From IMG/VR virus record IMGVR_UViG_3300025168_000032, positions 96,001 through 160,000 of that record: a DNA stretch of 64,000 bases; one strand, written 5' to 3'. Positions 26,658 to 64,000 of the stretch are shown piece by piece. This DNA comes from a virus. A program made the position numbers and the translations under genes. The notes beneath the pieces are model-generated. The model saw nothing but the letters and a program-made list of their open reading frames with translations. It was not told the origin of the DNA and made no database searches. Within the stretch, counting starts at the first letter, position 1. Every line of letters begins with the position of its first letter.

Positions 26658-27746
26658 ATGGGAAAGGTGATCGAAATGACTGAACACACAGGAAAAATTA
26701 ACGTTGGCGACTTAGCCAAGAAAATAAATAAGAAATTGGGCATCAAAGTTGCCCACGATTTGAATGAATCTAACCCAGTCTCTGTTAAAGATTGGATTCC
26801 AACTGGGTCTCGTTGGCTTGACTGTTCAATTAAGCCCGGAGAATACGCTGGTATCCCTGTCGGTAAAATCACAGAACTTGCTGGTTTATCTGGGGCTGGC
26901 AAGTCCTTTATGGCTGCTCAGATCGCAGGCAACGCTCAAAAGAAAGGTATGTTTGTCGTATATTTTGATGCAGAATCAGCGATAGATGAGGACTTTTTGG
27001 TGAAGGCTGGGTGCACCAAGGATCAATTGTTATATCAACAAGCAGTCTCAGTCGAAAAAACATTAGAAACGATGGAATATGTAATGGGCGAGTATAGTGA
27101 TGCAAGAGTTCTGTTTATTTGGGATTCTATTGCTGCAACCCCATCTGAAAAAGACCTTGAAGGAGATTATAACCCTCAATCTTCAATGGCTGTGAAGCCA
27201 AGAATTTTTTCCAAGGCATTTCCCAAACTTACGATCCCATTGGCGAATACTGAATCAACACTATTGTTGATTAATCAGTTAAAGACAAACATCTCTTCAC
27301 GACCAGCAGAGATGCTTATGGAGCCGTATATAGCTCCGGGTGGAAAAGCTATTGAGTACTTTTCCTCTTTGCGTATTTGGCTTACAAAGAGAAGAGCAAA
27401 AGCGTCATTTGCACTTGACGATGATGGCGTAAGAGTCGGGTCTCACGTCAAGGCCTTCATAAAGAAATCCAGAATGGGATCAGAAGGAAGGGTATGTGAG
27501 TTCAAGATAATGTGGGGAGGTCCAAAGGTTAGAATACAAGATGAAGAGTCTTGGCTAGACGTCCTTAAAGTTTCAAAACACCCCAATTTCACGCTCTCTG
27601 GGGCGTGGTACACAATGGTAGGGAAAGATGGAAAAGGTGTTAAATTTCAATCAAAACAGTGGCTTACTAAGCTAAAAGAAGAGAGTTTTAGGGAGACTGT
27701 TATTTCTTTAATGGATGAAGTTCTGATAGAGAAATATAAGTCGTAG
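26658..27746 (+). CDS. recA: RecA/UvsX recombinase
   Basis: IPTGS, GIPVGKITELAGLSGAGKS (Walker A), FDAESA, WDSIAA, LINQLK, PGGKAIEY. Confidence 0.95.
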   Translation: MGKVIEMTEHTGKINVGDLAKKINKKLGIKVAHDLNESNPVSVKDWIPTGSRWLDCSIKPGEYAGIPVGKITELAGLSGAGKSFMAAQIAGNAQKKGMFVVYFDAESAIDEDFLVKAGCTKDQLLYQQAVSVEKTLETMEYVMGEYSDARVLFIWDSIAATPSEKDLEGDYNPQSSMAVKPRIFSKAFPKLTIPLANTESTLLLINQLKTNISSRPAEMLMEPYIAPGGKAIEYFSSLRIWLTKRRAKASFALDDDGVRVGSHVKAFIKKSRMGSEGRVCEFKIMWGGPKVRIQDEESWLDVLKVSKHPNFTLSGAWYTMVGKDGKGVKFQSKQWLTKLKEESFRETVISLMDEVLIEKYKS

Positions 27747-49622: not shown

Positions 49623-49781
49623 ATGAATGATCCCAAAGAACAATGGTTGGCAGTTGACAGTATGATTAAGAAACTTAAACGTCTTAAGTACTGGCTAACT
49701 TCCCTTGATCCAGAAAAGAAACATATTATTAATGCTATAAACGAACTCGAACAAGCAAAACAACTATTGGAGGAAAAATGA
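49623..49781 (+). CDS. 52-aa hypothetical protein (not in ORF track)
   Basis: MNDPKEQWL...LLEEK*; stop overlaps groEL ATG; TTGACA-N16-TATATT at 49575-49602. Confidence 0.5.
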   Translation: MNDPKEQWLAVDSMIKKLKRLKYWLTSLDPEKKHIINAINELEQAKQLLEEK

Positions 49782-51343
49782 CGAAACATTATAGCAATGG
49801 GCAGGAGCTTAACACAAGGATTCTGTCTGGGATTAATAAACTGGCAGACAACGTAGCTACGACTCTCGGACCAAAGGGTCGCAACGTAATACTATTCCAT
49901 AAGGAGCAGGGTATCCCTGTTATTACAAAAGATGGAGTAACTGTTGCTAAGTTCGTGGGCTTTGAAGACCCGATGGAAAACGTTGGAGCACAGATTGTAA
50001 AACAAGCAGCAGAGCAGTCTGCTACAAAAGCTGGCGATGGTACTACAACTGCTACTGTCCTGACTAGAGCAATCTTACAGAGGGCCCAGAAGTACCTTAT
50101 GGCTGGTGTTTCTCCAATCGAGATCAAGCGTGGGATGGATAATGCCACAAATCTTATTGTTGACCGTTTGAGTGAAATGTCCACCCCGATTCGATCGGAG
50201 GAAGATATTCGGCACATTGCTACGATCTCAGCGAACAACGACAAATCAATAGGCACTTTGATAGCCACAGCGGTTGATTCAGCAGGTAAAGATGGTTCTG
50301 TTCTTGTTGAAGAAGCAAAATCAATCAACACATCCTTAGATTTGATTGAAGGTTTCCGTTTTGATTCTGGGTATCTATCTTCCACCTTTATCAACAACGA
50401 GAGATCAGGGACCATTGAGTATAATAGTCCCCTCATTCTAATCACAGACGAGAAGATCGAAACCATCGAGCAGATATTACCCACCCTTGAGCTTGCGTCA
50501 AGAGACAACAGTCCGTTGTTGATTGTTGCAGATGTAGAAGGCCAAGCCTTGGCTGCTGTTATCGCCAACGCGGTTCGCGGCACAATGAAAATAGTAGCGG
50601 TTAAACCACCCAGATATGGAGAAGAGAGAAGGAACATATTAAAAGACATGGCTTTGAAGACTGGCGCTACCTTTATAACAAGAGAGAGCGGGGTAGCCCT
50701 GAGACAGGTACAATTGCCCCACTTTGGTAATTGTAAATCGATATCTATCAACAAAGGATGGAGTACCATTGTCGGTGCAAGTGGCCCAGAAGAAGAAACA
50801 GAAAACAGGATTGAAGCACTGAAAGCAGAGATCAAACAAACAGACGACATCAAGGCTTGCGAGAGAATCCAAGAACGGATTACTCGTCTTGCTTCTGGTG
50901 TGGCTGTGATTCGAGTTGGAGCGGCAACAGAGATTGAAATGATGGAAAAGAAACACAGGATTGATGATGCTTTGGAGGCTGTAAGATCAGCACAGGAAGA
51001 AGGAATTGTCTCAGGTGGTGGCATAGCCTTGATTCGAGCAACACAAGATCTACTTGTGCGAACGGAGTCCGAAGAACAGTCTATCGGTGCCAAGATCATT
51101 CTTGAGGCCATTGAAGAACCTCTGCGACAAATGGCTAAAAACGCTGGAAAATCGCCTGATATTCTTGTTGCTAGGGTAAGGCAGTGCTCCTCGAATATGG
51201 GCTATAATTTCATGACTGACACCATTGTGAACATGCTTGAAGAGGGCATAGTAGATCCAGCTAAGGTGACTCGCTGCGCGTTGCAGAACGCTGTCTCAGT
51301 CGCATCCACTTTGATTACCACCAGTCATGCTATTGTATCTTAA
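49778..51343 (+). CDS. groEL: Chaperonin GroEL (no GGM tail)
   Basis: TLGPKGRNV, ITKDGVTVAK, AGDGTTTATVL, GVAVIRVGAATEIE, GIVSGGG, GIVDPAKVTRCALQNA. Confidence 0.97.
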   Translation: MTKHYSNGQELNTRILSGINKLADNVATTLGPKGRNVILFHKEQGIPVITKDGVTVAKFVGFEDPMENVGAQIVKQAAEQSATKAGDGTTTATVLTRAILQRAQKYLMAGVSPIEIKRGMDNATNLIVDRLSEMSTPIRSEEDIRHIATISANNDKSIGTLIATAVDSAGKDGSVLVEEAKSINTSLDLIEGFRFDSGYLSSTFINNERSGTIEYNSPLILITDEKIETIEQILPTLELASRDNSPLLIVADVEGQALAAVIANAVRGTMKIVAVKPPRYGEERRNILKDMALKTGATFITRESGVALRQVQLPHFGNCKSISINKGWSTIVGASGPEEETENRIEALKAEIKQTDDIKACERIQERITRLASGVAVIRVGAATEIEMMEKKHRIDDALEAVRSAQEEGIVSGGGIALIRATQDLLVRTESEEQSIGAKIILEAIEEPLRQMAKNAGKSPDILVARVRQCSSNMGYNFMTDTIVNMLEEGIVDPAKVTRCALQNAVSVASTLITTSHAIVS

Positions 51344-55976: not shown

Positions 55977-56010
55977 TGTCCTACCCACCTACCCCCGAGC
56001 ATGATATGTT
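55967..56010 (+). promoter_or_regulatory. Palindromic early promoter module, copy 2
   Basis: GGACA-ATTAA-TGTCC-TACCCA-N17-TATGTT, CCAAGGAG RBS. Confidence 0.85.
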
Positions 56011-56033
56011 ATGTATACAACCAAGGAGATAGT

Positions 56034-56279
56034 ATGAATGAGAAACTTGAAGCGATCAAAGAAGCAATAACCTTTATTAGGCACAATTGGCTCGATAACT
56101 CTGGTATATGGAGAGGCGAACTAAATGACTTTGTTGGGGCCATCAAACTAAGCAATGTCTCAGGTCGCGAGGTCACGCGCTTAGTCAAAGCTATTGCTGA
56201 TGGTGAACACACACCAGTAGACGGGATAACTGGAACTTTACTTGGAGGAAAGTTGACAATCGTTAGGGTTTCGAGATGA
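56034..56279 (+). CDS. Hypothetical protein
   Basis: CCAAGGAG RBS supports ATG 56034. Confidence 0.6.
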   Translation: MNEKLEAIKEAITFIRHNWLDNSGIWRGELNDFVGAIKLSNVSGREVTRLVKAIADGEHTPVDGITGTLLGGKLTIVRVSR

Positions 56280-57070
56280 TAGGTATAGAGTGGGGATCAG
56301 GAACTGTACGTTGCAGCTTTTGTGGCAAAAGGGGGCACAATATCTCCTCCTGTAGCCATGTCGAGGAAGTATTCCAGACCATCACGAAGAACAACCAAGA
56401 CACAACAGATCTAACGTTCACTCAAAGACAAGCCGTGCATGAAATGAAAAATAGAACCGTCCGAAACCAAAAAAGAAAAAACCGTAGAAATGCTAAGAAA
56501 GGCTCACGCTGTTCTTTTTGTAGAGAGGGAGGGCACAGGAGAACTACCTGCACTAAACACAAGTCTTTTGGAAAAAAAATATATAGAGCAAACCAAATCT
56601 GGAAAAAAGAGTTTGCTGAACTTGTTAACGAGACTGGAATAGGCGTAGGGTCGCTTATCGAGTTTCCGAGAGCTTCAATCATGTGGTATGCAGCAGATAA
56701 CGACAAACTAAGGGGAATAGTTACTGCTTTTAATATGGATAGCCTAAACATATTTTCTGCTTGGCCTAATCAAGATAAATACAGAACCGTACCCAATATG
56801 ATTGTTGTAGACTGTGCGGATTATAAGCAGGTTAATTGGCCATTCAATAAAATCCAGCCGTTTGTTGATAACGGCCTAACTTTATCACGATGGGGTAACG
56901 TCACAACCGATATTATTTGTAGTGCTCCATGGCAGCCACCTACTGGGTGGCTGGAAAGCAAAGAAAACCCAGAGATTGAATATGTACTTGGCAGTCTTTC
57001 TCGTGAACATAGAGCGTATGCAGCAATTGACACCCTTGTAAAAAACTGGCTAAACAGGGATAATAAATGA
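56276..57070 (+). CDS. Double CCHC zinc-knuckle protein with SH3/KOW-like C-terminal part
   Basis: CSFCGKRGHNISSC and CSFCREGGHRRTTC (both CX2CX4HX4C). Confidence 0.8.
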   Translation: MIGIEWGSGTVRCSFCGKRGHNISSCSHVEEVFQTITKNNQDTTDLTFTQRQAVHEMKNRTVRNQKRKNRRNAKKGSRCSFCREGGHRRTTCTKHKSFGKKIYRANQIWKKEFAELVNETGIGVGSLIEFPRASIMWYAADNDKLRGIVTAFNMDSLNIFSAWPNQDKYRTVPNMIVVDCADYKQVNWPFNKIQPFVDNGLTLSRWGNVTTDIICSAPWQPPTGWLESKENPEIEYVLGSLSREHRAYAAIDTLVKNWLNRDNK

Positions 57071-57136
57071 GCAAGACGCTTAGGAGAGCAGTGATACGCT
57101 CAAGAACAAACAGCGAATGGTATAACACCAAAAGGC

Positions 57137-57180
57137 GGTCAAAAAATGACCTACCCGATTCACCAAAGGCAAGATATATT
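57137..57180 (+). promoter_or_regulatory. Palindromic early promoter module, copy 3
   Basis: GGTCA-AAAAA-TGACC-TACCCG-N17-TATATT, CCAAGGAGG RBS. Confidence 0.8.
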
Positions 57181-57204
57181 ACTAACACACCCAAGGAGGA
57201 TGTA

Positions 57205-57375
57205 ATGGTTGACGTTGACAAGATAATACAATATGAAAATGGAGAGATGCAGGAAGATGAAGTAATAGAGTTCTTTCAAGAGCTTATTAACACAGGTCAT
57301 GCTTGGACCCTCCAAGGGCATTACGGTAGAGTTGCCAGCGGTCTTATTAAGGCTGGCCTCTGTACAAGACCATGA
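57205..57375 (+). CDS. Small conserved-looking phage protein
   Basis: RBS after promoter copy 3; IIQYENGEM...FFQELINTGHAWTLQGHYGR. Confidence 0.7.
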   Translation: MVDVDKIIQYENGEMQEDEVIEFFQELINTGHAWTLQGHYGRVASGLIKAGLCTRP

Positions 57376-57539
57376 TGATCGGGGACTTGATCTATATTTC
57401 AGATTGGAAGGAGTATGCTATTGTAATGGAGAAGGGCGAGGTTTTTACTGATGAATGCTCATGGCGCGTGTCGATTATCTCAGACCCTGAATTGGTCGAA
57501 GTTTTTAGTTATGAGATGGAGGTGATTAATGAAGCATGA
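57372..57539 (+). CDS. 55-aa GDLV SH3/KOW-like protein (not in ORF track)
   Basis: MMIGDLIYISDWKEYAIV...MEVINEA*. Confidence 0.65.
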   Translation: MMIGDLIYISDWKEYAIVMEKGEVFTDECSWRVSIISDPELVEVFSYEMEVINEA

Positions 57540-57747
57540 ACCAGCTAAATACGAAGTTGGTGACTTGGTTGGCATTGGCTGGAATGGTAAGTTAAAATGC
57601 CCAAATCCAGCCATTGTGATAAAGGTTTTAGACCCCGTTTCTATCTCTTGCGGTAGCACCTTGTATGTCGTCAGACCAGTTAAGGACCATGAGAGTGAGA
57701 GTTGGTGTGACTATACGCATCTGACCCCTTGGGTAACGGACAAATAA
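57529..57747 (+). CDS. GDLV SH3/KOW-like protein
   Basis: YEVGDLVGI...AIVIKV...YVVRP. Confidence 0.7.
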   Translation: MKHEPAKYEVGDLVGIGWNGKLKCPNPAIVIKVLDPVSISCGSTLYVVRPVKDHESESWCDYTHLTPWVTDK

Positions 57748-57781
57748 TGTCCTACCCACCTACCCCTGCCTGTGATATACT
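57738..57781 (+). promoter_or_regulatory. Palindromic early promoter module, copy 4
   Basis: GGACA-AATAA-TGTCC-TACCCA-N17-TATACT. Confidence 0.85.
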
Positions 57782-57805
57782 ATATACATAACCAAGGAGA
57801 ACAAA

Positions 57806-57859
57806 ATGAACGAACATGAAGAAGAAGAAAGAATGTGGAGAACGTGGGGTGACCAATGA
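57806..57859 (+). CDS. 17-aa mini-ORF/remnant
   Basis: CCAAGGAGAACAAAATG context; MNEHEEEERMWRTWGDQ*; ATGA-coupled to next gene. Confidence 0.5.
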   Translation: MNEHEEEERMWRTWGDQ

Positions 57860-58029
57860 AAGTAGGAGATTTAGTAAGATACGATATGGATGATCTTTGC
57901 GTAGGTGTTGTCACCTGCATCGATCCAGAAGAGCTTGGTGATGATGGCGAAGTGGAAGTCGTTTGGGTCGGTGGTGCTGTAAGCAACCATTCAACTTATT
58001 TTTTGGAGGTGATCAGTGAAAATAAATGA
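57856..58029 (+). CDS. 57-aa GDLV SH3/KOW-like protein (not in ORF track)
   Basis: MKVGDLVRY...VGVVT...EVVW...FLEVISENK*. Confidence 0.7.
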   Translation: MKVGDLVRYDMDDLCVGVVTCIDPEELGDDGEVEVVWVGGAVSNHSTYFLEVISENK

Positions 58030-58210
58030 TTTAGTAAAAGTAGGTGACTTAGTAAGGTACAAACATCGTTACATAGGAGAACAGTTTGTAGTTGTAGCCG
58101 TTCGCACAAACCACACCAGCCCCAAACGTCTAAAGGTGCTGTGCGTATCAGCCAAGACCCTAAAAAAAACAAGATGGTCTTGGTCATCGACCGTTAGTGT
58201 GCTTGCGTGA
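58016..58210 (+). CDS. GDLV SH3/KOW-like protein
   Basis: VKVGDLVRY; GGAGG RBS, GTG start. Confidence 0.7.
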   Translation: MKINDLVKVGDLVRYKHRYIGEQFVVVAVRTNHTSPKRLKVLCVSAKTLKKTRWSWSSTVSVLA

Positions 58211-58413
58211 ATGTTGGTGATTTGGTCTGGGTATACCGCAATGCTCACCCAAGCCGAGAAAGGTTTATAGGTGTGATCACTGAGATCGAAGACCCTTGGG
58301 GTTCGGATCGTGGGTGTAGCGTGTTTGTTACCTTTTTTGACGGAGACTGGGGAGTATATCACCCATCCCAAATCAATCTTATCCCAAAAGAGAAAGAACA
58401 TGAAAGTAGGTGA
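58207..58413 (+). CDS. GDLV SH3/KOW-like protein
   Basis: MNVGDLVWV...IGVIT...VFVTF. Confidence 0.7.
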   Translation: MNVGDLVWVYRNAHPSRERFIGVITEIEDPWGSDRGCSVFVTFFDGDWGVYHPSQINLIPKEKEHESR

Positions 58414-58564
58414 TTTAATAGTGCCAACCAAAAGGATGCGAGACTTCGGCTATCACGAGGTTGGTATTGTAATTAGGATATGGGGTGGCAGATCGGTGGT
58501 CGCCTTTCCAGATGGAAGCTCCCAGACTTTCCACCCATCTCAATTGAAACCGGACAAAAATTGA
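58400..58564 (+). CDS. GDLV SH3/KOW-like protein
   Basis: MKVGDLIVP...VGIVI...VVAFPDG...QLKPDKN*. Confidence 0.7.
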   Translation: MKVGDLIVPTKRMRDFGYHEVGIVIRIWGGRSVVAFPDGSSQTFHPSQLKPDKN

Positions 58565-58595
58565 CCTACCCATGTACCCCCGAGCATGATATATT
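58552..58595 (+). promoter_or_regulatory. Palindromic early promoter module, copy 5
   Basis: GGACA-AAAAT-TGACC-TACCCA-N17-TATATT. Confidence 0.85.
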
Positions 58596-58618
58596 ATATG
58601 TAGACCCAAGGAGAAACC

Positions 58619-59323
58619 ATGAGAAGAAGAACATCAGAAGAAATCGCAGCAGCGATTGAAAGAGCAGAACAAATGGGAAGACATAGATCCGTAAAGGTTA
58701 TGGCTGATATGAAAACGCAATTTGACAGCCGAGGGTGTCTATCAGATCGCCAATGGGACTACTTGAACAAACTTATGCTTGATAATTGCAAAGCAGCATT
58801 GGTGGATTTTAATGAATACTTTGAACGCTTTACCACAGATAAAGAGTTTAGGGAAAAGGCGGAGGTCGTGTCTCGATATTACCAAGGGGCCGGACAATAC
58901 TACGTCAGAGCAGCGACGCAAACACTGATAGCATTAAAGAGTAATGACAAGAATGATTTGCCACCGTACCATTCTTTTTCCAAAATGATAAATAACAAAT
59001 ACGCTGATAAGGTATGGGATAGCCATAGTAAACCACCTTTATATTCAGCAGGTGACTTGATAAAAATACGCTCTACTGGTATCAATCGGATATGGAGCCA
59101 AAGAAAAAGCACCGAAGAGGAGCAAGCTGGGATCGAGAACCTCAACAGCCACCCTTGTTTGGTCATCAAGGCAAACGCGAAACCCATCACTACTGCGCTT
59201 CAATACAAACCAAAACAGGGTGGCGCAAGGGTTTACTCTGTTATGCCAGTCGGCAGCACGTTGATTTACTATATCTTAGAATGTGATTTGAAGAAGAATC
59301 GCACACCAAAAGCCAAAAAATAG
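58619..59323 (+). CDS. Hypothetical protein with LSDRQ motif and C-terminal SH3/KOW-like domain
   Basis: GCLSDRQWDYL; LYSAGDLIKIR...CLVI...YSVMP. Confidence 0.65.
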   Translation: MRRRTSEEIAAAIERAEQMGRHRSVKVMADMKTQFDSRGCLSDRQWDYLNKLMLDNCKAALVDFNEYFERFTTDKEFREKAEVVSRYYQGAGQYYVRAATQTLIALKSNDKNDLPPYHSFSKMINNKYADKVWDSHSKPPLYSAGDLIKIRSTGINRIWSQRKSTEEEQAGIENLNSHPCLVIKANAKPITTALQYKPKQGGARVYSVMPVGSTLIYYILECDLKKNRTPKAKK

Positions 59324-59331
59324 GGACTGAT

Positions 59332-59598
59332 ATGGATATTATATTTGAAGAGGTGCCGCTGCCATTCAAACTTGGCCTTGGAAACAAAAATGGCAAGATA
59401 ACAAGAGTGCTGGTGCACCATAAGGGAAATTTTTATATAGTATCAGAGAACACAGCCCTAAAAGAGACGCTGGTTTTTCCTGCTTCTCCAACGGGCGAGA
59501 TACTTGACTGGGTTGAAGTGGGCGGCGGAGACGGATTAACACTAAAAGAGGTTTTGGCTAACTTCGACCAGAACCTACATTCCGAGATGTATTTTTAA
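59332..59598 (+). CDS. Hypothetical protein
   Basis: 88-aa ORF between gene and promoter copy 6. Confidence 0.6.
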   Translation: MDIIFEEVPLPFKLGLGNKNGKITRVLVHHKGNFYIVSENTALKETLVFPASPTGEILDWVEVGGGDGLTLKEVLANFDQNLHSEMYF

Positions 59599-59601
59599 GC
59601 C

Positions 59602-59645
59602 GGACATTTTCTGACCTACCCATCTACCCCTGCCCATGATACATT
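59602..59645 (+). promoter_or_regulatory. Palindromic early promoter module, copy 6
   Basis: GGACA-TTTTC-TGACC-TACCCA-N17-TACATT. Confidence 0.85.
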
Positions 59646-59669
59646 GTATACAGAACCAAGGAGAACCCA

Positions 59670-60539
59670 ATGAAAATATTTGAAGAAAAGAACAGACCCA
59701 CACACAAAAGCAGTGCGAACGCTTGTGGCTATTGCCGCAACACAGGACACAATAGATCCAACTGTCCTCATGCACCAGAAGACTGGTCACACTTTACCAC
59801 TTATCAAATACCATTGAAGACCTCAAAGGTACAATCTCAATGGATAAAGTATCCAAAGTATTGGGGTGCTTGGTATGAAGAGTGTAAAAAGACTGTGGAA
59901 CTTCAACAGCGCAATGCACAAAAGGTCAAGGCTAAAAGATCGACAACCAGACACTGTGGTTTCTGTGGTGATGCTGGTCACACTCGTCGTAACTGCTCAG
60001 AGATGGAGGAGTTCCTTAAACAGTGCTACAAAGCCAATGAGAACTGGCGAAGGGCTGCATACAACATTCTCGTTAAAGAGCATGGCATTGATATAGGGGC
60101 AGCGGTGCAAGTTTCCCAAAGTCAGTGGGTTGGGGGTGAGAATATTAAGACTGAACATATTGGACTCATCACCTCCGTTAATTGGGATAGTTTAAATGTT
60201 ATGACTGCTTATGACAGCGGCTATGATTGGCAGCGGTATGCCCAATGTATTGACGTTAGGGTCATGGTTGACGGAAAAGATCATCGTCTTTCACTAAAAG
60301 ACAAGCTTCACGGTACGTCTCTTTCAGAGGTAATCAACAAGAGAAACACAAATACAGGCTATTATTATCAGCAACTTTCCTTAGACAAGGTGATCGGCAA
60401 GTCAGCGCAGCCACTAAAAGAAGAATGGGTCACGTCTTACAAAGACGCTTTTGATTACCTTGCTAAGAAGCTTAGTTTAGAACAGCTTGAAGATCGTGGG
60501 ATACTCAGTCATATCCAAAGCTGGGCAAATCGGTCATAA
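59670..60539 (+). CDS. Double CCHC zinc-knuckle protein, paralog of 56276..57070
   Basis: CGYCRNTGHNRSNC and CGFCGDAGHTRRNC; shared YKANENW and GLITSVNWDSLNV segments. Confidence 0.8.
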   Translation: MKIFEEKNRPTHKSSANACGYCRNTGHNRSNCPHAPEDWSHFTTYQIPLKTSKVQSQWIKYPKYWGAWYEECKKTVELQQRNAQKVKAKRSTTRHCGFCGDAGHTRRNCSEMEEFLKQCYKANENWRRAAYNILVKEHGIDIGAAVQVSQSQWVGGENIKTEHIGLITSVNWDSLNVMTAYDSGYDWQRYAQCIDVRVMVDGKDHRLSLKDKLHGTSLSEVINKRNTNTGYYYQQLSLDKVIGKSAQPLKEEWVTSYKDAFDYLAKKLSLEQLEDRGILSHIQSWANRS

Positions 60540-60575
60540 TCTGTCCTACCCAATTCCTATCCACCATGATACATT
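60532..60575 (+). promoter_or_regulatory. Palindromic early promoter module, copy 7
   Basis: GGTCA-TAATC-TGTCC-TACCCA-N17-TACATT. Confidence 0.85.
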
Positions 60576-60599
60576 GTATACAGAACCAAGGAGAACAAA

Positions 60600-60752
60600 A
60601 TGAAGTTTAAAGTAGGAGATTTAGTAAAGACCCACCGTGGCAATGTTGCCCTCGTTACAGAGGTTGGCGAAGACTGGTGCAATATACTATTTTGCAACAG
60701 TGGGTTTTTAAGAACTGGCTTTCCAGCGTGGTGGTTAGAGGTGGTACAATGA
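60600..60752 (+). CDS. 50-aa GDLV SH3/KOW-like protein (not in ORF track)
   Basis: MKFKVGDLVKTHRGNVALVTEV...WLEVVQ*. Confidence 0.7.
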   Translation: MKFKVGDLVKTHRGNVALVTEVGEDWCNILFCNSGFLRTGFPAWWLEVVQ

Positions 60753-60898
60753 AAATCGGTGATTTAGTAAAATACGATTACGATGGAGATACCGGCATAG
60801 TCATTGACATAGATGCAACTGGTATGCTTTTCGTTCACTGGAGTGACGGCAAAGAAGGGTGGCATATCCACAGCGAGTTGGAGGCAGTATGCAAGTAG
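60749..60898 (+). CDS. GDLV SH3/KOW-like protein
   Basis: MKIGDLVKY..DTGIVI...FVHW...ELEAVCK*. Confidence 0.75.
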   Translation: MKIGDLVKYDYDGDTGIVIDIDATGMLFVHWSDGKEGWHIHSELEAVCK

Positions 60899-60908
60899 GT
60901 GATTTAGT
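60879..60908 (+). repeat. 30-bp gene-junction repeat, copy 1
   Basis: TGGAGGCAGTATGCAAGTAGGTGATTTAGT. Confidence 0.85.
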
Positions 60909-61044
60909 CAAGAACAGGCACGGCAACACGGGGATCATTACAAAACGATATGGCTTCAAGAAACGGAGGACTTGGTGGGTGCATTGGCTTTGTGGTGAGG
61001 ACTGCCCGATTCATGAGCGATTTGTGGAGGCAGTATGCAGATAG
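60889..61044 (+). CDS. GDLV SH3/KOW-like protein
   Basis: MQVGDLVKN..NTGIIT...WVHW...FVEAVCR*. Confidence 0.75.
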   Translation: MQVGDLVKNRHGNTGIITKRYGFKKRRTWWVHWLCGEDCPIHERFVEAVCR

Positions 61045-61054
61045 GTGATTTAGT
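61025..61054 (+). repeat. 30-bp gene-junction repeat, copy 2
   Basis: TGGAGGCAGTATGCAGATAGGTGATTTAGT (2 mismatches to copy 1). Confidence 0.85.
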
Positions 61055-61271
61055 AAGGATAGATAAGAGTTCCGCTATGGTTGGTCACGTTGGCAAGGTG
61101 GGCTTAGTTGTCAGAAGAGTGAAACAAACATTGAAGCCATCTAACACGTGGCTGATCGCGTTTTCAGATGGCAGTACGGTTATTTTTCATAGAGTAGATT
61201 TATTAGAGGTGCCAAATGAAAATAGGAGATTTAGTACAACTATCAGCTTATGGGGAAGCGAGGAACCATAA
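61035..61271 (+). CDS. GDLV SH3/KOW-like protein
   Basis: MQIGDLVRI...VGLVV...WLIAF...LLEV. Confidence 0.7.
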   Translation: MQIGDLVRIDKSSAMVGHVGKVGLVVRRVKQTLKPSNTWLIAFSDGSTVIFHRVDLLEVPNENRRFSTTISLWGSEEP

Positions 61272-61431
61272 CCACGGTTGGTATGGTGGCTGGGGGCTTA
61301 TATTGGAAATCCATAATGACTCAACCTATCCCATCAAAGCCCAGTGGTACAATACCCGTAGTGGCAAAGATCAAGGCGGAGCGCGATTCCACCCAAGAGA
61401 ATTGAAGAAATATAAACCGGACAAAAATTGA
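61216..61431 (+). CDS. GDLV SH3/KOW-like protein
   Basis: MKIGDLVQL...WGLILEI...KAQW...ELKKYKPDKN*. Confidence 0.75.
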   Translation: MKIGDLVQLSAYGEARNHNHGWYGGWGLILEIHNDSTYPIKAQWYNTRSGKDQGGARFHPRELKKYKPDKN

Positions 61432-61462
61432 CCTACCCATTTACCCCTGACCATGCTATATT
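61419..61462 (+). promoter_or_regulatory. Palindromic early promoter module, copy 8
   Basis: GGACA-AAAAT-TGACC-TACCCA-N17-TATATT. Confidence 0.85.
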
Positions 61463-61486
61463 ATGTACAGAACCAAGGAGAACAAA

Positions 61487-61657
61487 ATGCAAGTAGGTGA
61501 TTTAATGATTGACGAAAAGACCTTGAGGGAAATAGGGGAAGCAGTTTATGTCATCTTTCTTGGTTACAACCAATGGGGTGAGATCAAGGTTATGCTTCCA
61601 GACGGATTTGTTTACCAAGGCTGCGAATTGGACTTCAAGGAGGTAGTATGCAAGTAG
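61487..61657 (+). CDS. GDLV SH3/KOW-like protein
   Basis: MQVGDLMID...FKEVVCK*. Confidence 0.7.
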   Translation: MQVGDLMIDEKTLREIGEAVYVIFLGYNQWGEIKVMLPDGFVYQGCELDFKEVVCK

Positions 61658-61667
61658 GTGATTTAGT
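61638..61667 (+). repeat. 30-bp gene-junction repeat, copy 3
   Basis: AGGAGGTAGTATGCAAGTAGGTGATTTAGT (2 mismatches). Confidence 0.85.
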
Positions 61668-61866
61668 AAAGCAAAAAAGCGATTGGGTTCGGCACAATCC
61701 GTGGATGAGTGGTACTGAACTTGATGACAGCCCAGACATCTTGGGAATTATAGTAAAGGTTGAGGTTCCAGCGTGTTCCATAACATCTGGCTGGTATATA
61801 ATTGAATGGCTGAACGGTGGAAGGAACCACACAAAAGGAGACAGGTTGGAGGCAATATGCAAGTAG
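61648..61866 (+). CDS. GDLV SH3/KOW-like protein
   Basis: MQVGDLVKQ...LGIIVKV...YIIEW...LEAICK*. Confidence 0.75.
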   Translation: MQVGDLVKQKSDWVRHNPWMSGTELDDSPDILGIIVKVEVPACSITSGWYIIEWLNGGRNHTKGDRLEAICK

Positions 61867-61876
61867 GAGATTTGGT
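61847..61876 (+). repeat. 30-bp gene-junction repeat, copy 4
   Basis: TGGAGGCAATATGCAAGTAGGAGATTTGGT (3 mismatches). Confidence 0.85.
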
Positions 61877-62069
61877 AACAAGAGATAAGTACCACATGAG
61901 TCATGGCAAATTATTCGGAACCATCGTAAAAAGGAAGCCGCTGGAATTTTGCTTGGGCCCCGACGGAAAGCAGGCATATCAATATAAAATCTATTGGTTG
62001 TGTTGTCAAACAAAGATTTGTGCCGATGACTGGTGGATCGATCAATTTTTGGAGGCAGTATGCAAGTAG
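61857..62069 (+). CDS. GDLV SH3/KOW-like protein
   Basis: MQVGDLVTR...FGTIVK...YKIYW...FLEAVCK*. Confidence 0.75.
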   Translation: MQVGDLVTRDKYHMSHGKLFGTIVKRKPLEFCLGPDGKQAYQYKIYWLCCQTKICADDWWIDQFLEAVCK

Positions 62070-62079
62070 GTGATTTGGT
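62050..62079 (+). repeat. 30-bp gene-junction repeat, copy 5
   Basis: TGGAGGCAGTATGCAAGTAGGTGATTTGGT (1 mismatch). Confidence 0.85.
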
Positions 62080-62236
62080 AACCCACAGACCAACAGGAGC
62101 GGTGGGTATTATTATAGAAGAGAACGGGACCAGTGTCTGTATCGTGTGGAACTACGACCCATTGCATAAAGACGAGGGTGAAGAGGAGTGGATAAGCAAG
62201 TTTTTCATCGAAAACCTAAAACCGGTCAAAAAATGA
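62060..62236 (+). CDS. GDLV SH3/KOW-like protein
   Basis: MQVGDLVTH...AVGIII...CIVW...LKPVKK*. Confidence 0.75.
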   Translation: MQVGDLVTHRPTGAVGIIIEENGTSVCIVWNYDPLHKDEGEEEWISKFFIENLKPVKK

Positions 62237-62267
62237 CCTACCCATCCACCCCTGCCTATGCTATATT
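62224..62267 (+). promoter_or_regulatory. Palindromic early promoter module, copy 9
   Basis: GGTCA-AAAAA-TGACC-TACCCA-N17-TATATT. Confidence 0.85.
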
Positions 62268-62292
62268 ATATACATAACCAAGGAGAAAACTT

Positions 62293-62583
62293 ATGACCTT
62301 TCGCAATATGAAACAACTAAAATCTTTCAGTCACTCGCAAGGATGGCACTACTTTGCTTGGGATGTTGTGCATGGTCGTCGAACCCAAAAGACCCCACCT
62401 TATGGAGGCTGCGTTTTTGTAGCATCGGAGAAACATAGTGATGGAACTCGATACTACGATATTCTTAGAATTATGCCCTTGGGTAACATTAAGTATGTAC
62501 CCAGCAATAGGCCGTTCACGAACAGAAAGAAAGCTCACGCTTTTGCAAAAGCCTTCGCAAAGAAAATCTCACAACGGACATAA
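62293..62583 (+). CDS. Hypothetical early protein
   Basis: CCAAGGAG RBS; stop inside promoter copy 10. Confidence 0.65.
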   Translation: MTFRNMKQLKSFSHSQGWHYFAWDVVHGRRTQKTPPYGGCVFVASEKHSDGTRYYDILRIMPLGNIKYVPSNRPFTNRKKAHAFAKAFAKKISQRT

Positions 62584-62619
62584 ATTGTCCTACCCATTCA
62601 GACTGAAACAGCATATATT
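62576..62619 (+). promoter_or_regulatory. Palindromic early promoter module, copy 10
   Basis: GGACA-TAAAT-TGTCC-TACCCA-N17-TATATT. Confidence 0.85.
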
Positions 62620-62643
62620 ACTTATACCAACCAAGGAGAGAGC

Positions 62644-62868
62644 ATGTCAAAACAAACAACATTCATCGTATCAGGCTGGGTAGAGCGTCACTACCGACTG
62701 GAAATAGAAGCTTCTTCTTATGAGGAGGCAGAAAGGATAGCAGAGAGCAAGCTTGATTATTCAGAGGGTTCCGAGCTTGATGATTATGAGGATGGTACAC
62801 ACGTTCGCATTAGTGATGTAGAGTGTGAAGACCCCGAATGGGATGAAGAATCCGAAGAAGAATTATAA
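62644..62868 (+). CDS. Small acidic protein, DpnD/PcfM-like pattern
   Basis: TFIVSGWVERHYRLEIEASSYEEAERIA. Confidence 0.6.
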   Translation: MSKQTTFIVSGWVERHYRLEIEASSYEEAERIAESKLDYSEGSELDDYEDGTHVRISDVECEDPEWDEESEEEL

Positions 62869-62871
62869 AAC

Positions 62872-62915
62872 GGACAAAAAATGTCCTACCCAAACAGACC
62901 TAAACTACTTATATT
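62872..62915 (+). promoter_or_regulatory. Palindromic early promoter module, copy 11
   Basis: GGACA-AAAAA-TGTCC-TACCCA-N17-TATATT. Confidence 0.85.
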
Positions 62916-62964
62916 ATAGATACAAAACAAACACAAACTTTAACTTTCCAAAAGGAGTCCTATC

Positions 62965-64000
62965 ATGGCTATCGACTTTCGTACTTACAACTCAGTTATT
63001 CACCTCGTCATCAATGCAAAGTTTCCTATACTTATTCGTGGTCGTCACGGTGTTGGGAAATCAGAGCTTGTCTATAAGACAGCAAAAGACCTTGGTCTGC
63101 CTATCGTTGAGCGTCGAGCCTCACAGATGACAGAAGGCGACTTACTCGGCCTACCAAAGGTAGAGAAGGGTATCACTAAGTGGCTTGCCCCTGAGTGGTT
63201 GCACAATGCCTGTAAAAACCCTGTGGTCCTTTTCCTCGACGAGGTTGATCGAGCTACAATGGAAGTCCGTCAAGGTATCTTTGAGCTTTGCGATAGCCGT
63301 AAAATCGCTGGCTACACCCTTCATCCAGATACTCTCATCTTTGCCGCTGTTAACGGTGGAGAGCACGGTGCCCAGTACCAAGTAGGAGAGATGGACCCTG
63401 CTGAACTTGACCGCTACACTGTCTTTGATGTGGAGCCTACTACTGAAGATTGGCTGGATTGGGCTTCTGACCGTGTATCCTCAGAAGTCTGGGACTTTAT
63501 TAACGCTAACCATAGTCATTTAGAGCACAAGGATGAGTATGAGCCTAACAAGGTTTACCCTTCTCGACGCTCTTGGGTTCGCCTTGACAAGGCCCTTAAA
63601 GGCTTAAAGCAAATCGAGCATGGTACTACACTATACCACCTTAGCCACGCCTTCGTAGGTATGGAGGCTGCGGTTGCTTTCAACGACTTCATCCAGAACT
63701 ATGAACGTCAGGTCACTGTAGAAGACATCCTTGACAGAGGTAAGTTTGAACTCATGAAGGACTGGAAAAACAATGATCACCTTGCTCTTATCGAGAAGAT
63801 GAAGGCAGAAAAGATATTTGATGAGGATCTTAGTGATGTTCGCACTGCTAACCTTGCCGAGTATTTCGTAATTCTCCCAAGTGAGATCGCCATGACCATT
63901 TGGACCAACATCGGCAAAGGAAAAGTGCAGTCTAACATCGCAGCTTTCCACGGGCAAATCACAAAAGCTGGCGTAGTTGTTAAAATGCACCTTGTAAAGC
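62965..64000 (+). CDS. MoxR-like AAA+ ATPase, 3'-truncated by window edge (absent from ORF track)
   Basis: AAGGAG RBS; MAIDFRTY...PILIRGRHGVGKS (Walker A), VLFLDEVDRA (Walker B), MDPAELDRY, YPSRRSW; frame read from the start motifs and from 63601 to the window end without a stop. Confidence 0.9.
   Translation, partial: MAIDFRTYNSVIHLVINAKFPILIRGRHGVGKSELVYKTAKDLGLPIVERRASQMTEGDLLGLPKVEKGITKWLAPEWLHNACKNPVVLFLDEVDRATMEVRQGIFELCDSRKIAGYTLHPDTLIFAAVNGGEHGAQYQVGEMDPAELDRYTVFDVEPTTEDWLDWASDRVSSEVWDFINANHSHLEHKDEYEPNKVYPSRRSWVRLDKALKGLKQIEHGTTLYHLSHAFVGMEAAVAFNDFIQNYERQVTVEDILDRGKFELMKDWKNNDHLALIEKMKAEKIFDEDLSDVRTANLAEYFVILPSEIAMTIWTNIGKGKVQSNIAAFHGQITKAGVVVKMHLVK

Follow-up and report, generated by a model that had tools for sequence, protein, structure and literature searches.

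Mini-gene operons and the 30-nucleotide joint

An array of very small genes linked by a short repeated sequence was identified in the virus record IMGVR_UViG_3300025168_000032 (185,652 bp, estimated to be 92% complete). The stretch analysed, called the window here, covers bases 96001-160000 of that record (64,000 nt). A 30-nucleotide sequence (30-mer) occurs in the window at positions 60879, 61025, 61638, 61847 and 62050, with 0, 2, 2, 3 and 1 mismatches, respectively, whereas no copy is expected by chance (100 shuffles of the sequence). These five positions, the range of 0-3 mismatches and spacings of 146, 209 and 203 bp had been given in an original prediction made from the letters alone, and all of them were borne out. 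The copy-to-copy distances are irregular and range from 146 to 613 bp.

The mini-genes joined by the 30-mer lie on the plus strand in two operons. Operon 1 (60600..61431) contains five mini-genes (60600-60752, 60749-60898, 60889-61044, 61035-61271 and 61216-61431) and operon 2 (61487..62236) contains four (61487-61657, 61648-61866, 61857-62069 and 62060-62236). Copy 1 of the junction (60879..60908) holds the tail and stop of gene 60749-60898, a GGAGG motif and the start of gene 60889-61044. Copies 2 (61025..61054), 3 (61638..61667), 4 (61847..61876) and 5 (62050..62079), all on the plus strand and of the same type 1, join genes 60889-61044 and 61035-61271, genes 61487-61657 and 61648-61866, genes 61648-61866 and 61857-62069, and genes 61857-62069 and 62060-62236, respectively. 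An upstream cluster (57372..58564, plus strand) contains six more family members, with starts at 57372, 57529, 57856, 58016, 58207 and 58400.

Each 30-mer combines the last codons and stop of the upstream open reading frame (ORF), GGAGG, and ATG with the first seven codons of the downstream ORF. The downstream ORF is read one base back in frame, and adjacent genes overlap by 10 nt at all five copies. GGAGG, the putative ribosome-binding site (RBS), is placed 4 nt ahead of ATG and is present in every copy. The upstream tails read L/V/K-E-A/V-V/I-C-K/R before the stop. The tail E-A-V-C-K, which had been claimed for each copy, is exact in two of the five (the others are E-A-V-C-R, E-V-V-C-K and E-A-I-C-K), and the claimed start M-Q-V-G-D-L-V holds for four, the remaining copy reading M-Q-I. 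The mini-genes linked in this way have 49-78 codons. Start motifs of the joint kind number 12 in the window against 0.04 expected.

A second junction type with GAGGTG had also been proposed; it is real, and three of its positions (57519, 60738 and 61206) were as given, whereas the fourth lies at 58006 rather than 58008. The junction at 60738..60768 (plus strand) is of the ATGA type, with L-E-V-V-Q-stop over M-K-I-G-D-L-V, and joins genes 60600-60752 and 60749-60898. Two type-2-like junctions, both on the plus strand, are found in the first mini-gene cluster: 57519..57540 joins genes 57372-57539 and 57529-57747, and 58006..58030, which has a GTG start, joins genes 57856-58029 and 58016-58210. 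In the type-2 junction at 61206..61236 (plus strand) the Gly codon is GGA instead of GGT and the TGA stop is lost, and ORF 61035-61271 overlaps gene 61216-61431 by 56 nt. The upstream protein 61035-61271 is longer by about 16 residues, a natural illustration of the preference for GGT-GAT.

The joint was compared across about 90 related IMG/VR contigs, 12 of which were found via the joint itself and 80 via a neighbouring ATPase. Three main junction classes occur in this set. In the class of the window, the Val codon GTA together with the first G of the Gly codon after it makes up the stop TAG. The commonest class takes its stop, TGA, from GGT-GAT and has tails such as ...E-V-I-N-E-S-R, and the third class is a simple ATGA overlap. 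Since the stop and tail are spelled by the start of the next gene, the last residues of the upstream protein (C-K, C-E, C-S-K or N-E-S-R) are the first codons of that gene read out of frame. The conserved L-E-V ahead of them is the last strand of the small barrel that each mini-gene encodes (described below), and its codons also spell the ribosome site of the next gene. Within L-E-V, Glu is encoded by GAG in 287 cases and by GAA in 17, whereas gene bodies use 44% GAG. Across the clade, GAGG ends 4-7 nt upstream of the start, and in 83% of 989 genes the stop of the upstream ORF falls at +1, +7 or +11 relative to the start. This combination of a stop/start overlap with a ribosome site inside the upstream coding sequence is the anatomy of a coupled operon, and translation of each downstream gene is predicted to be coupled to termination of the gene before it. 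Programmed frameshifting that would fuse successive barrels was considered and rejected, as no slippery site is present and every gene begins with a conserved ribosome site and a start codon of its own.

Three overlapping constraints (upstream C-terminus, ribosome site and downstream N-terminus) give most of the conservation of the joint. They figure in the explanation that the locus is an ordinary array of paralogues, in which RBS and dual-frame constraint keep the joint, recombination is random and illegitimate, breakpoints at gene boundaries are those that survive selection (a Hendrix-type model), and the repeat is not causal. Consistent with this explanation, the five window copies vary about as much as expected at their few free sites. 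Codon usage bears on it in both directions. The V-G-D-L-V codons deviate from background (GGT 68% vs 34%, Leu TTR 76% vs 33%, second-Val GTA 43% vs 20%). The GGT bias falls from 74% to 41% where no upstream gene overlaps, as dual-frame constraint would have it, whereas the Leu and second-Val biases stay in such genes; these lasting biases may reflect translation-initiation needs or maintained homology. Two further observations speak against a purely constrained array. Junctions are slightly more similar within a genome (0.742) than between genomes (0.712; permutation p 0.004), and a GGAGGCA variant that is rare elsewhere is found in four of the five window copies. Together, the private variant and the within-genome likeness suggest some concerted evolution of the joints within a genome.

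Cassette gain, loss and exchange among relatives

A metagenome scan with the protein encoded at 62060-62233 yielded two contigs from different projects, L095 and L096, which are 90-93% identical to the window at 59-64 kb and carry different cassette sets. The cassettes of operon 1 are designated A (60600), B (60749), C (60889), D (61035) and E (61216), and those of operon 2 F (61487), G (61648), H (61857) and I (62060); lower-case letters denote cassettes absent from the window. The order in the window is A B C D E in operon 1 and F G H I in operon 2, whereas L096 reads A x1 x2 x3 x4 D E and z B H I, and L095 reads y1 y2 x4 D E and z H w I, respectively. The BLAST breakpoints between the window and these contigs all fall close to a mini-gene start, at -21 to +28 nt. 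Such start zones make up roughly a quarter of the array, and by our own arithmetic the chance that nine independent breakpoints would all fall inside them is about 1e-5. At junction copy 2 the match to both contigs starts at 61014, at copy 4 it starts at 61847 (L095) and 61845 (L096), and in the ATGA-type junction the identity with L096 ends at 60768. At copy 5, L095 has an extra cassette (w), which is flanked by two copies of the 30-mer that the window has at 62050 (alignment A5). In L096 the body of cassette B lies in operon 2 and starts with M-Q-V in place of M-K-I (alignment A6), so the crossover fell inside the G-D-L-V codons. A third contig, L094, carries a cassette I that is 96% identical in amino acids in a backbone that is only about 75% identical, followed by a promoter module (see below) and cassette A. 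A contig from marine run X2 matches cassette 62060 from 62064 onward, but the sequence upstream of this point differs and ends in a start of the GTG type; it is probably the same cassette in another context.

Changes of the same kind have been identified elsewhere in the clade. Contigs L067 and L069 (99.3% identical) differ by one 214-nt cassette between two 12-nt repeats, and L061 and L063 (97% identical) differ by two single-cassette indels at the joint motif. Between L067 and L068, an identity of 97.6% breaks off 12 nt before a start codon. Contigs L008 and L011 share one 53-codon cassette (95-97% identical) with unrelated sequence on both flanks. About a dozen islands that are 92-98% identical stand in backgrounds of 72-82%, and all of them end at joints or promoter modules. 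Cassettes that are at least 90% identical in different contigs have homologous neighbours in only 3 of 13 cases upstream and 2 of 11 downstream. Several other high-identity islands between contigs were tRNA genes and were excluded. In relatives, tRNA genes lie downstream of the ATPase (L072:5816-5977, L092:18105-18266, L059:14841-14994 and L089:17318-17471), and none is found in the window.

Every resolved indel or replacement has 11-30 nt of shared microhomology at both ends, with chimeric junctions, which speaks against the explanation by illegitimate recombination. That explanation, which has in its favour that illegitimate recombination is the favoured general model of phage mosaics (PMC3029335), is considered improbable here. 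The mosaics might also be artefacts of metagenome assembly, produced by mis-joins at short repeats. The sequences compared are all contigs from assemblies, and a short-k assembly can be misled by repeats of 20-33 nt. The shared cassettes, however, are 93-98% rather than 100% identical to the other copy, the repeats that flank the indels are merely 11-14 nt long, arrays are 99.9-100% identical in six contig pairs from different samples, and L095 and L096 have the same novel segment order although they come from different projects. Assembly artefacts are therefore a very unlikely source of the mosaics.

The mini-genes probably form a translationally coupled chain with the 30-mer as its standard joint, and crossovers between copies of the 30-mer would shuffle whole genes. 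The polymorphism of cassette order and number that the original prediction had anticipated, with breakpoints in the repeat, was found in relatives 90-93% identical to the window and in pairs 97-99% identical. Several points weigh against this reading. The overlapping constraints alone can explain most of the identity of the 30-mer within the window. The evidence is comparative throughout and is drawn entirely from metagenome assemblies. For four marine runs, contigs compared with positions 56000-64000 gave short, identical unitigs of low depth and no deletion joints, a result that does not bear on polymorphism in the population, and a Pfam search with ten of the mini-proteins returned nothing above the cut-off. 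Since the constraints suffice for most of the identity, recombination may be a by-product of the joint, and selection for recombination does not follow. The proposed check of third-codon positions accordingly had a divided outcome: there is a modest excess of codon bias and of homogenisation within genomes, but the identity is largely a matter of RBS and dual-frame constraint. It had also been stated that the idea would fail if constraint fully explained the conservation and relatives showed no cassette polymorphism; constraint does largely explain the identity of the 30-mer, yet cassette polymorphism among relatives exists.

The mini-protein family and its genomic setting

A jackhmmer search started from a single window member recovered 878 of 950 non-redundant mini-proteins, which therefore form one family. 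About 950 members were counted in the related contigs. About 24 members are present genome-wide by the family profile, mostly at 57.3-62.2 kb of the window. A second small cluster outside the window, at 65.7-66.3 kb of the genome (G000:C1:65756-66249), contains three family members with ...L-E-V-I-N-E-N-R tails. The window paralogues are less than 35% identical outside the N-terminus and are old copies rather than recent duplicates. The mini-gene bodies are under purifying selection, with a ratio of nonsynonymous to synonymous substitution rates (dN/dS) of 0.19 over 38 independent ortholog pairs.

An AlphaFold (AF2) model of the protein 62060-62233, built with 132 aligned members, has a predicted local distance difference test (pLDDT) score of 90 and five strands (residues 6-9, 15-22, 25-30, 41-46 and 50-52). 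Its Foldseek neighbours are the KOW domains of Spt5 and NusG, Tudor domains and HspQ, with template-modelling (TM) scores of 0.70-0.76; the KOW neighbours specifically have TM scores of 0.72-0.76 and a root-mean-square deviation of about 2 Å. The only sequence link to KOW is a profile match to the Spt5 KOW domain (E 7.5e-5). Each gene is thus predicted to encode a five-strand barrel of the KOW/SH3-like kind with 50-80 residues. The mini-proteins share this barrel with the KOW, SH3-like and Tudor proteins (Spt5, NusG KOW, uL24 and HspQ), and their N-terminal G-D-x-V ... G aligns with the KOW motif, but they differ in being stand-alone proteins without a match to Pfam PF00467 above threshold and in that all their relatives are unnamed. 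Scans of ten members against Pfam and PHROGs gave sub-threshold SH3- or Tudor-like matches only. More than 1,100 relatives were found in a database of 5.8 billion proteins, all of them unnamed, and the protein atlas contains unnamed clusters only. A structure search of the PDB and of viral models returned generic small-barrel neighbours and uncharacterised viral proteins, with no functional lead. These proteins probably bind host factors. A fused barrel domain in the neighbouring 289-aa and 234-aa proteins was looked for and rejected, since the profile comparison was not significant (6% and 1% probability, respectively).

The selection on the gene bodies, the confidently predicted fold and the strand specificity (family genes are almost never on the opposite strand) dispose of the idea that the locus is a non-coding repeat array, either CRISPR-like (clustered regularly interspaced short palindromic repeats) or a structured RNA, with coincidental ORFs. 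This idea has in its favour only a superficial repeat-spacer appearance and is already refuted. The irregular spacing of the repeat is a further point against it, 80-nt segments around the five copies all fold no more stably than shuffled sequence (z -0.85 to +1.63), and an Rfam search at the joints, CRISPR families included, gave no match. The CRISPR or integron analogy drawn in the original prediction is likewise not supported, as the spacers are homologous genes of one family under purifying selection and the repeat has no RNA structure.

The source phage is an uncultured marine T4-related myovirus. Its genes follow a single-strand layout and include those for a T4-type major head protein, a tail sheath, a ribonucleotide reductase and a DnaE-type polymerase. 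The nearest cultured relatives by capsid are Flavobacterium, Microcystis and Rhodothermus myoviruses, at 40-50% identity. Neither megablast nor tblastn with one mini-protein gave a match in 50,697 isolate phage records, and the clade and the mini-protein family are known from metagenomes only. The array sits in the early, variable region of the phage genome.

A module consisting of a dyad and promoter-like elements lies ahead of operon 1 (60532..60593, plus strand), and equivalents are located at 61419-61480 and 62224-62285. Its parts are, in order, a GGWCA-N5-TGWCC dyad, TACCCA, about 17 nt, a TAnnnT hexamer and the ribosome site CCAAGGAG. Copies precede each operon between 55318 and 62915 of the window, at 57137, 57738, 58552, 59602, 60532, 61419, 62224, 62576 and 62872. 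The module resembles the promoter-early stem-loop (PeSL) of T4-type phages, and in relatives it bounds some of the high-identity islands. The operon-final genes 58400-58564, 61216-61431 and 62060-62236 end in ...K-P-D/V-K-N/K, which is encoded by the dyad of the next module; here too, therefore, the downstream element dictates the C-terminal residues.

Other genes of the window include a GroEL-type chaperonin gene (49778-51343) and the genes of two paralogous proteins of 264 and 289 aa (56276-57070 and 59670-60539) with paired CCHC zinc-knuckle motifs. These paralogues are kept in relatives at 30-63% identity, have only a weak zinc-finger match in Pfam and show no significant similarity to the mini-gene profile. 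A 102-aa protein encoded at 57067-57375 carries DUF7417 (E 5.7e-17) and is kept beside the arrays in several relatives.

Probable recombination at the joint and its relation to known systems

In the proposed mechanism, ribosomes that finish one mini-gene would stand on the start of the next. The same stretch of 12-33 nt at both ends of every gene would allow any two copies to recombine or slip, and an exchange between joints would delete, duplicate, insert or swap whole genes, within a genome or between co-infecting relatives. Products would always be intact and coupled by virtue of the register of the joint, and the outcome would be a fast-turnover library of small barrel proteins. The earlier claim that any crossover between copies leaves intact, coupled genes is supported by this register and by the cassette changes in relatives. 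Recombination-driven shuffling, which had been put forward together with the acquisition of effector domains, agrees with the gain, loss, replacement and relocation of cassettes; acquisition of arbitrary domains does not, as the cassettes belong to one barrel family under purifying selection.

A gene for a RecA/UvsX-type recombinase (PF00154, E 1.9e-34) is located at 26658..27746 on the plus strand. Searches of the 185.7-kb genome with PF00589 (tyrosine recombinase, IntI-type), for which the controls were positive, and with PF00239 (resolvase) gave no match, and no cas genes were seen, which agrees with the earlier statement that neither Cas nor an integrase is needed. With no integrase or resolvase, no RNA hairpin and a RecA/UvsX-type gene present, the likely engine is general homologous recombination, or slippage, between shared stretches of 11-33 nt, and the phage RecA/UvsX-type enzyme probably carries out the exchanges. 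The joint could instead be the site of a specialised recombinase in a dedicated, integron-like site-specific system. The regular layout of repeat and variable unit and the mobility of whole units would fit such a system, and one of the numerous unannotated genes may encode a novel recombinase. In this nearly complete genome, however, neither a tyrosine nor a serine recombinase was found, the repeat lacks a hairpin or attC-like structure (the fold scores given above), and the crossover points vary inside the repeat; a dedicated system is accordingly held to be most improbable.

The closest published precedent is found in the hyperplastic regions of T4-type phages, which contain PeSL cassettes (Arbiol et al. 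2010, PMC2839356; Comeau et al. 2014, PMC4122927). A PeSL is an intergenic element of about 100 bp with a promoter and a terminator stem-loop, and it acts at the level of transcription (PMC2839356, PMC4122927). Like PeSLs, the joint copies are short conserved repeats between small non-essential genes of T4-related phages, whole genes are exchanged by homology with their expression kept, and both systems are proposed to work without a dedicated recombinase. As at PeSL exchange points, the genes flanked by joint copies undergo indels and replacements between related phages, and dyad-plus-promoter modules that resemble a PeSL are also present between the operons of the window. In contrast to a PeSL, the joint is a 12-33 nt stretch of overlapping coding sequence inside an operon, across which reading frames and translational coupling would be preserved. 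It has no sigma-70-like early promoter: no promoter-like site was found on the plus strand at any of the five junction copies, the promoters being placed in the modules at 60532, 61419 and 62224. It also has no stem-loop terminator, and it connects members of one protein family, whereas PeSLs connect unrelated ORFans. The joint is thus PeSL-like in its working but is not a PeSL; it is an intra-operon, coding variant of PeSL-mediated shuffling.

Boundary linkers of lambdoid phages (summarised in PMC3029335) are similar in that homologous recombination at short conserved gene-boundary sequences makes mosaics. In lambdoid phages and mycobacteriophages linker sequences are absent at most mosaic junctions (PMC3029335), whereas every resolved junction here carries one. 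Translational coupling by stop/start overlap (reviewed in PMC12548453) likewise involves ATGA-type and longer overlaps with the ribosome site in the upstream coding sequence; in the present clade, one coupling cassette is reused hundreds of times, dictates the C-terminal residues upstream and doubles as a recombination site. Integron and CRISPR arrays share with this locus a repeat that alternates with variable units and the gain and loss of whole units. The locus differs from an integron in having neither an integrase (IntI) nor attC-type imperfect hairpins, and from a CRISPR array in that its units are homologous protein genes at a spacing of 146-613 bp, with no structured repeat and no cas genes.

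A more far-reaching interpretation, regarded as doubtful, is that the joint is a selected universal adaptor, a recombinase-free, translation-level counterpart of the integron with cassette circles and a shared library of binders. In this case the codon choices, which bring both alternative frames to a stop no more than 14 nt from each start, would allow a cassette arriving in any frame to be terminated and re-coupled. Excised single-cassette circles, like PeSL mini-circles, would carry genes between co-infecting phages. If this were true, more than 1000 KOW-like binders would be available to the clade as a shared combinatorial library, to be used in host takeover or anti-defence.

For the more probable reading, in which crossovers between copies of a standard joint shuffle whole mini-genes, the main significance concerns phage mosaicism. 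Two models compete to explain it, namely homologous exchange at conserved linkers and random illegitimate recombination followed by selection. With about a thousand cassettes from hundreds of contigs, and with every resolved exchange in a 12-33 nt linker that is also the coupling signal, the linker model becomes directly testable. The joint illustrates how protein structure, translation and genome plasticity can all be served by one short sequence, and its design could be copied for synthetic shuffling of small-protein libraries. It links the members of a very large, unnamed family of small-barrel proteins in abundant marine phages, and the turnover of this family suggests a role in an arms race.

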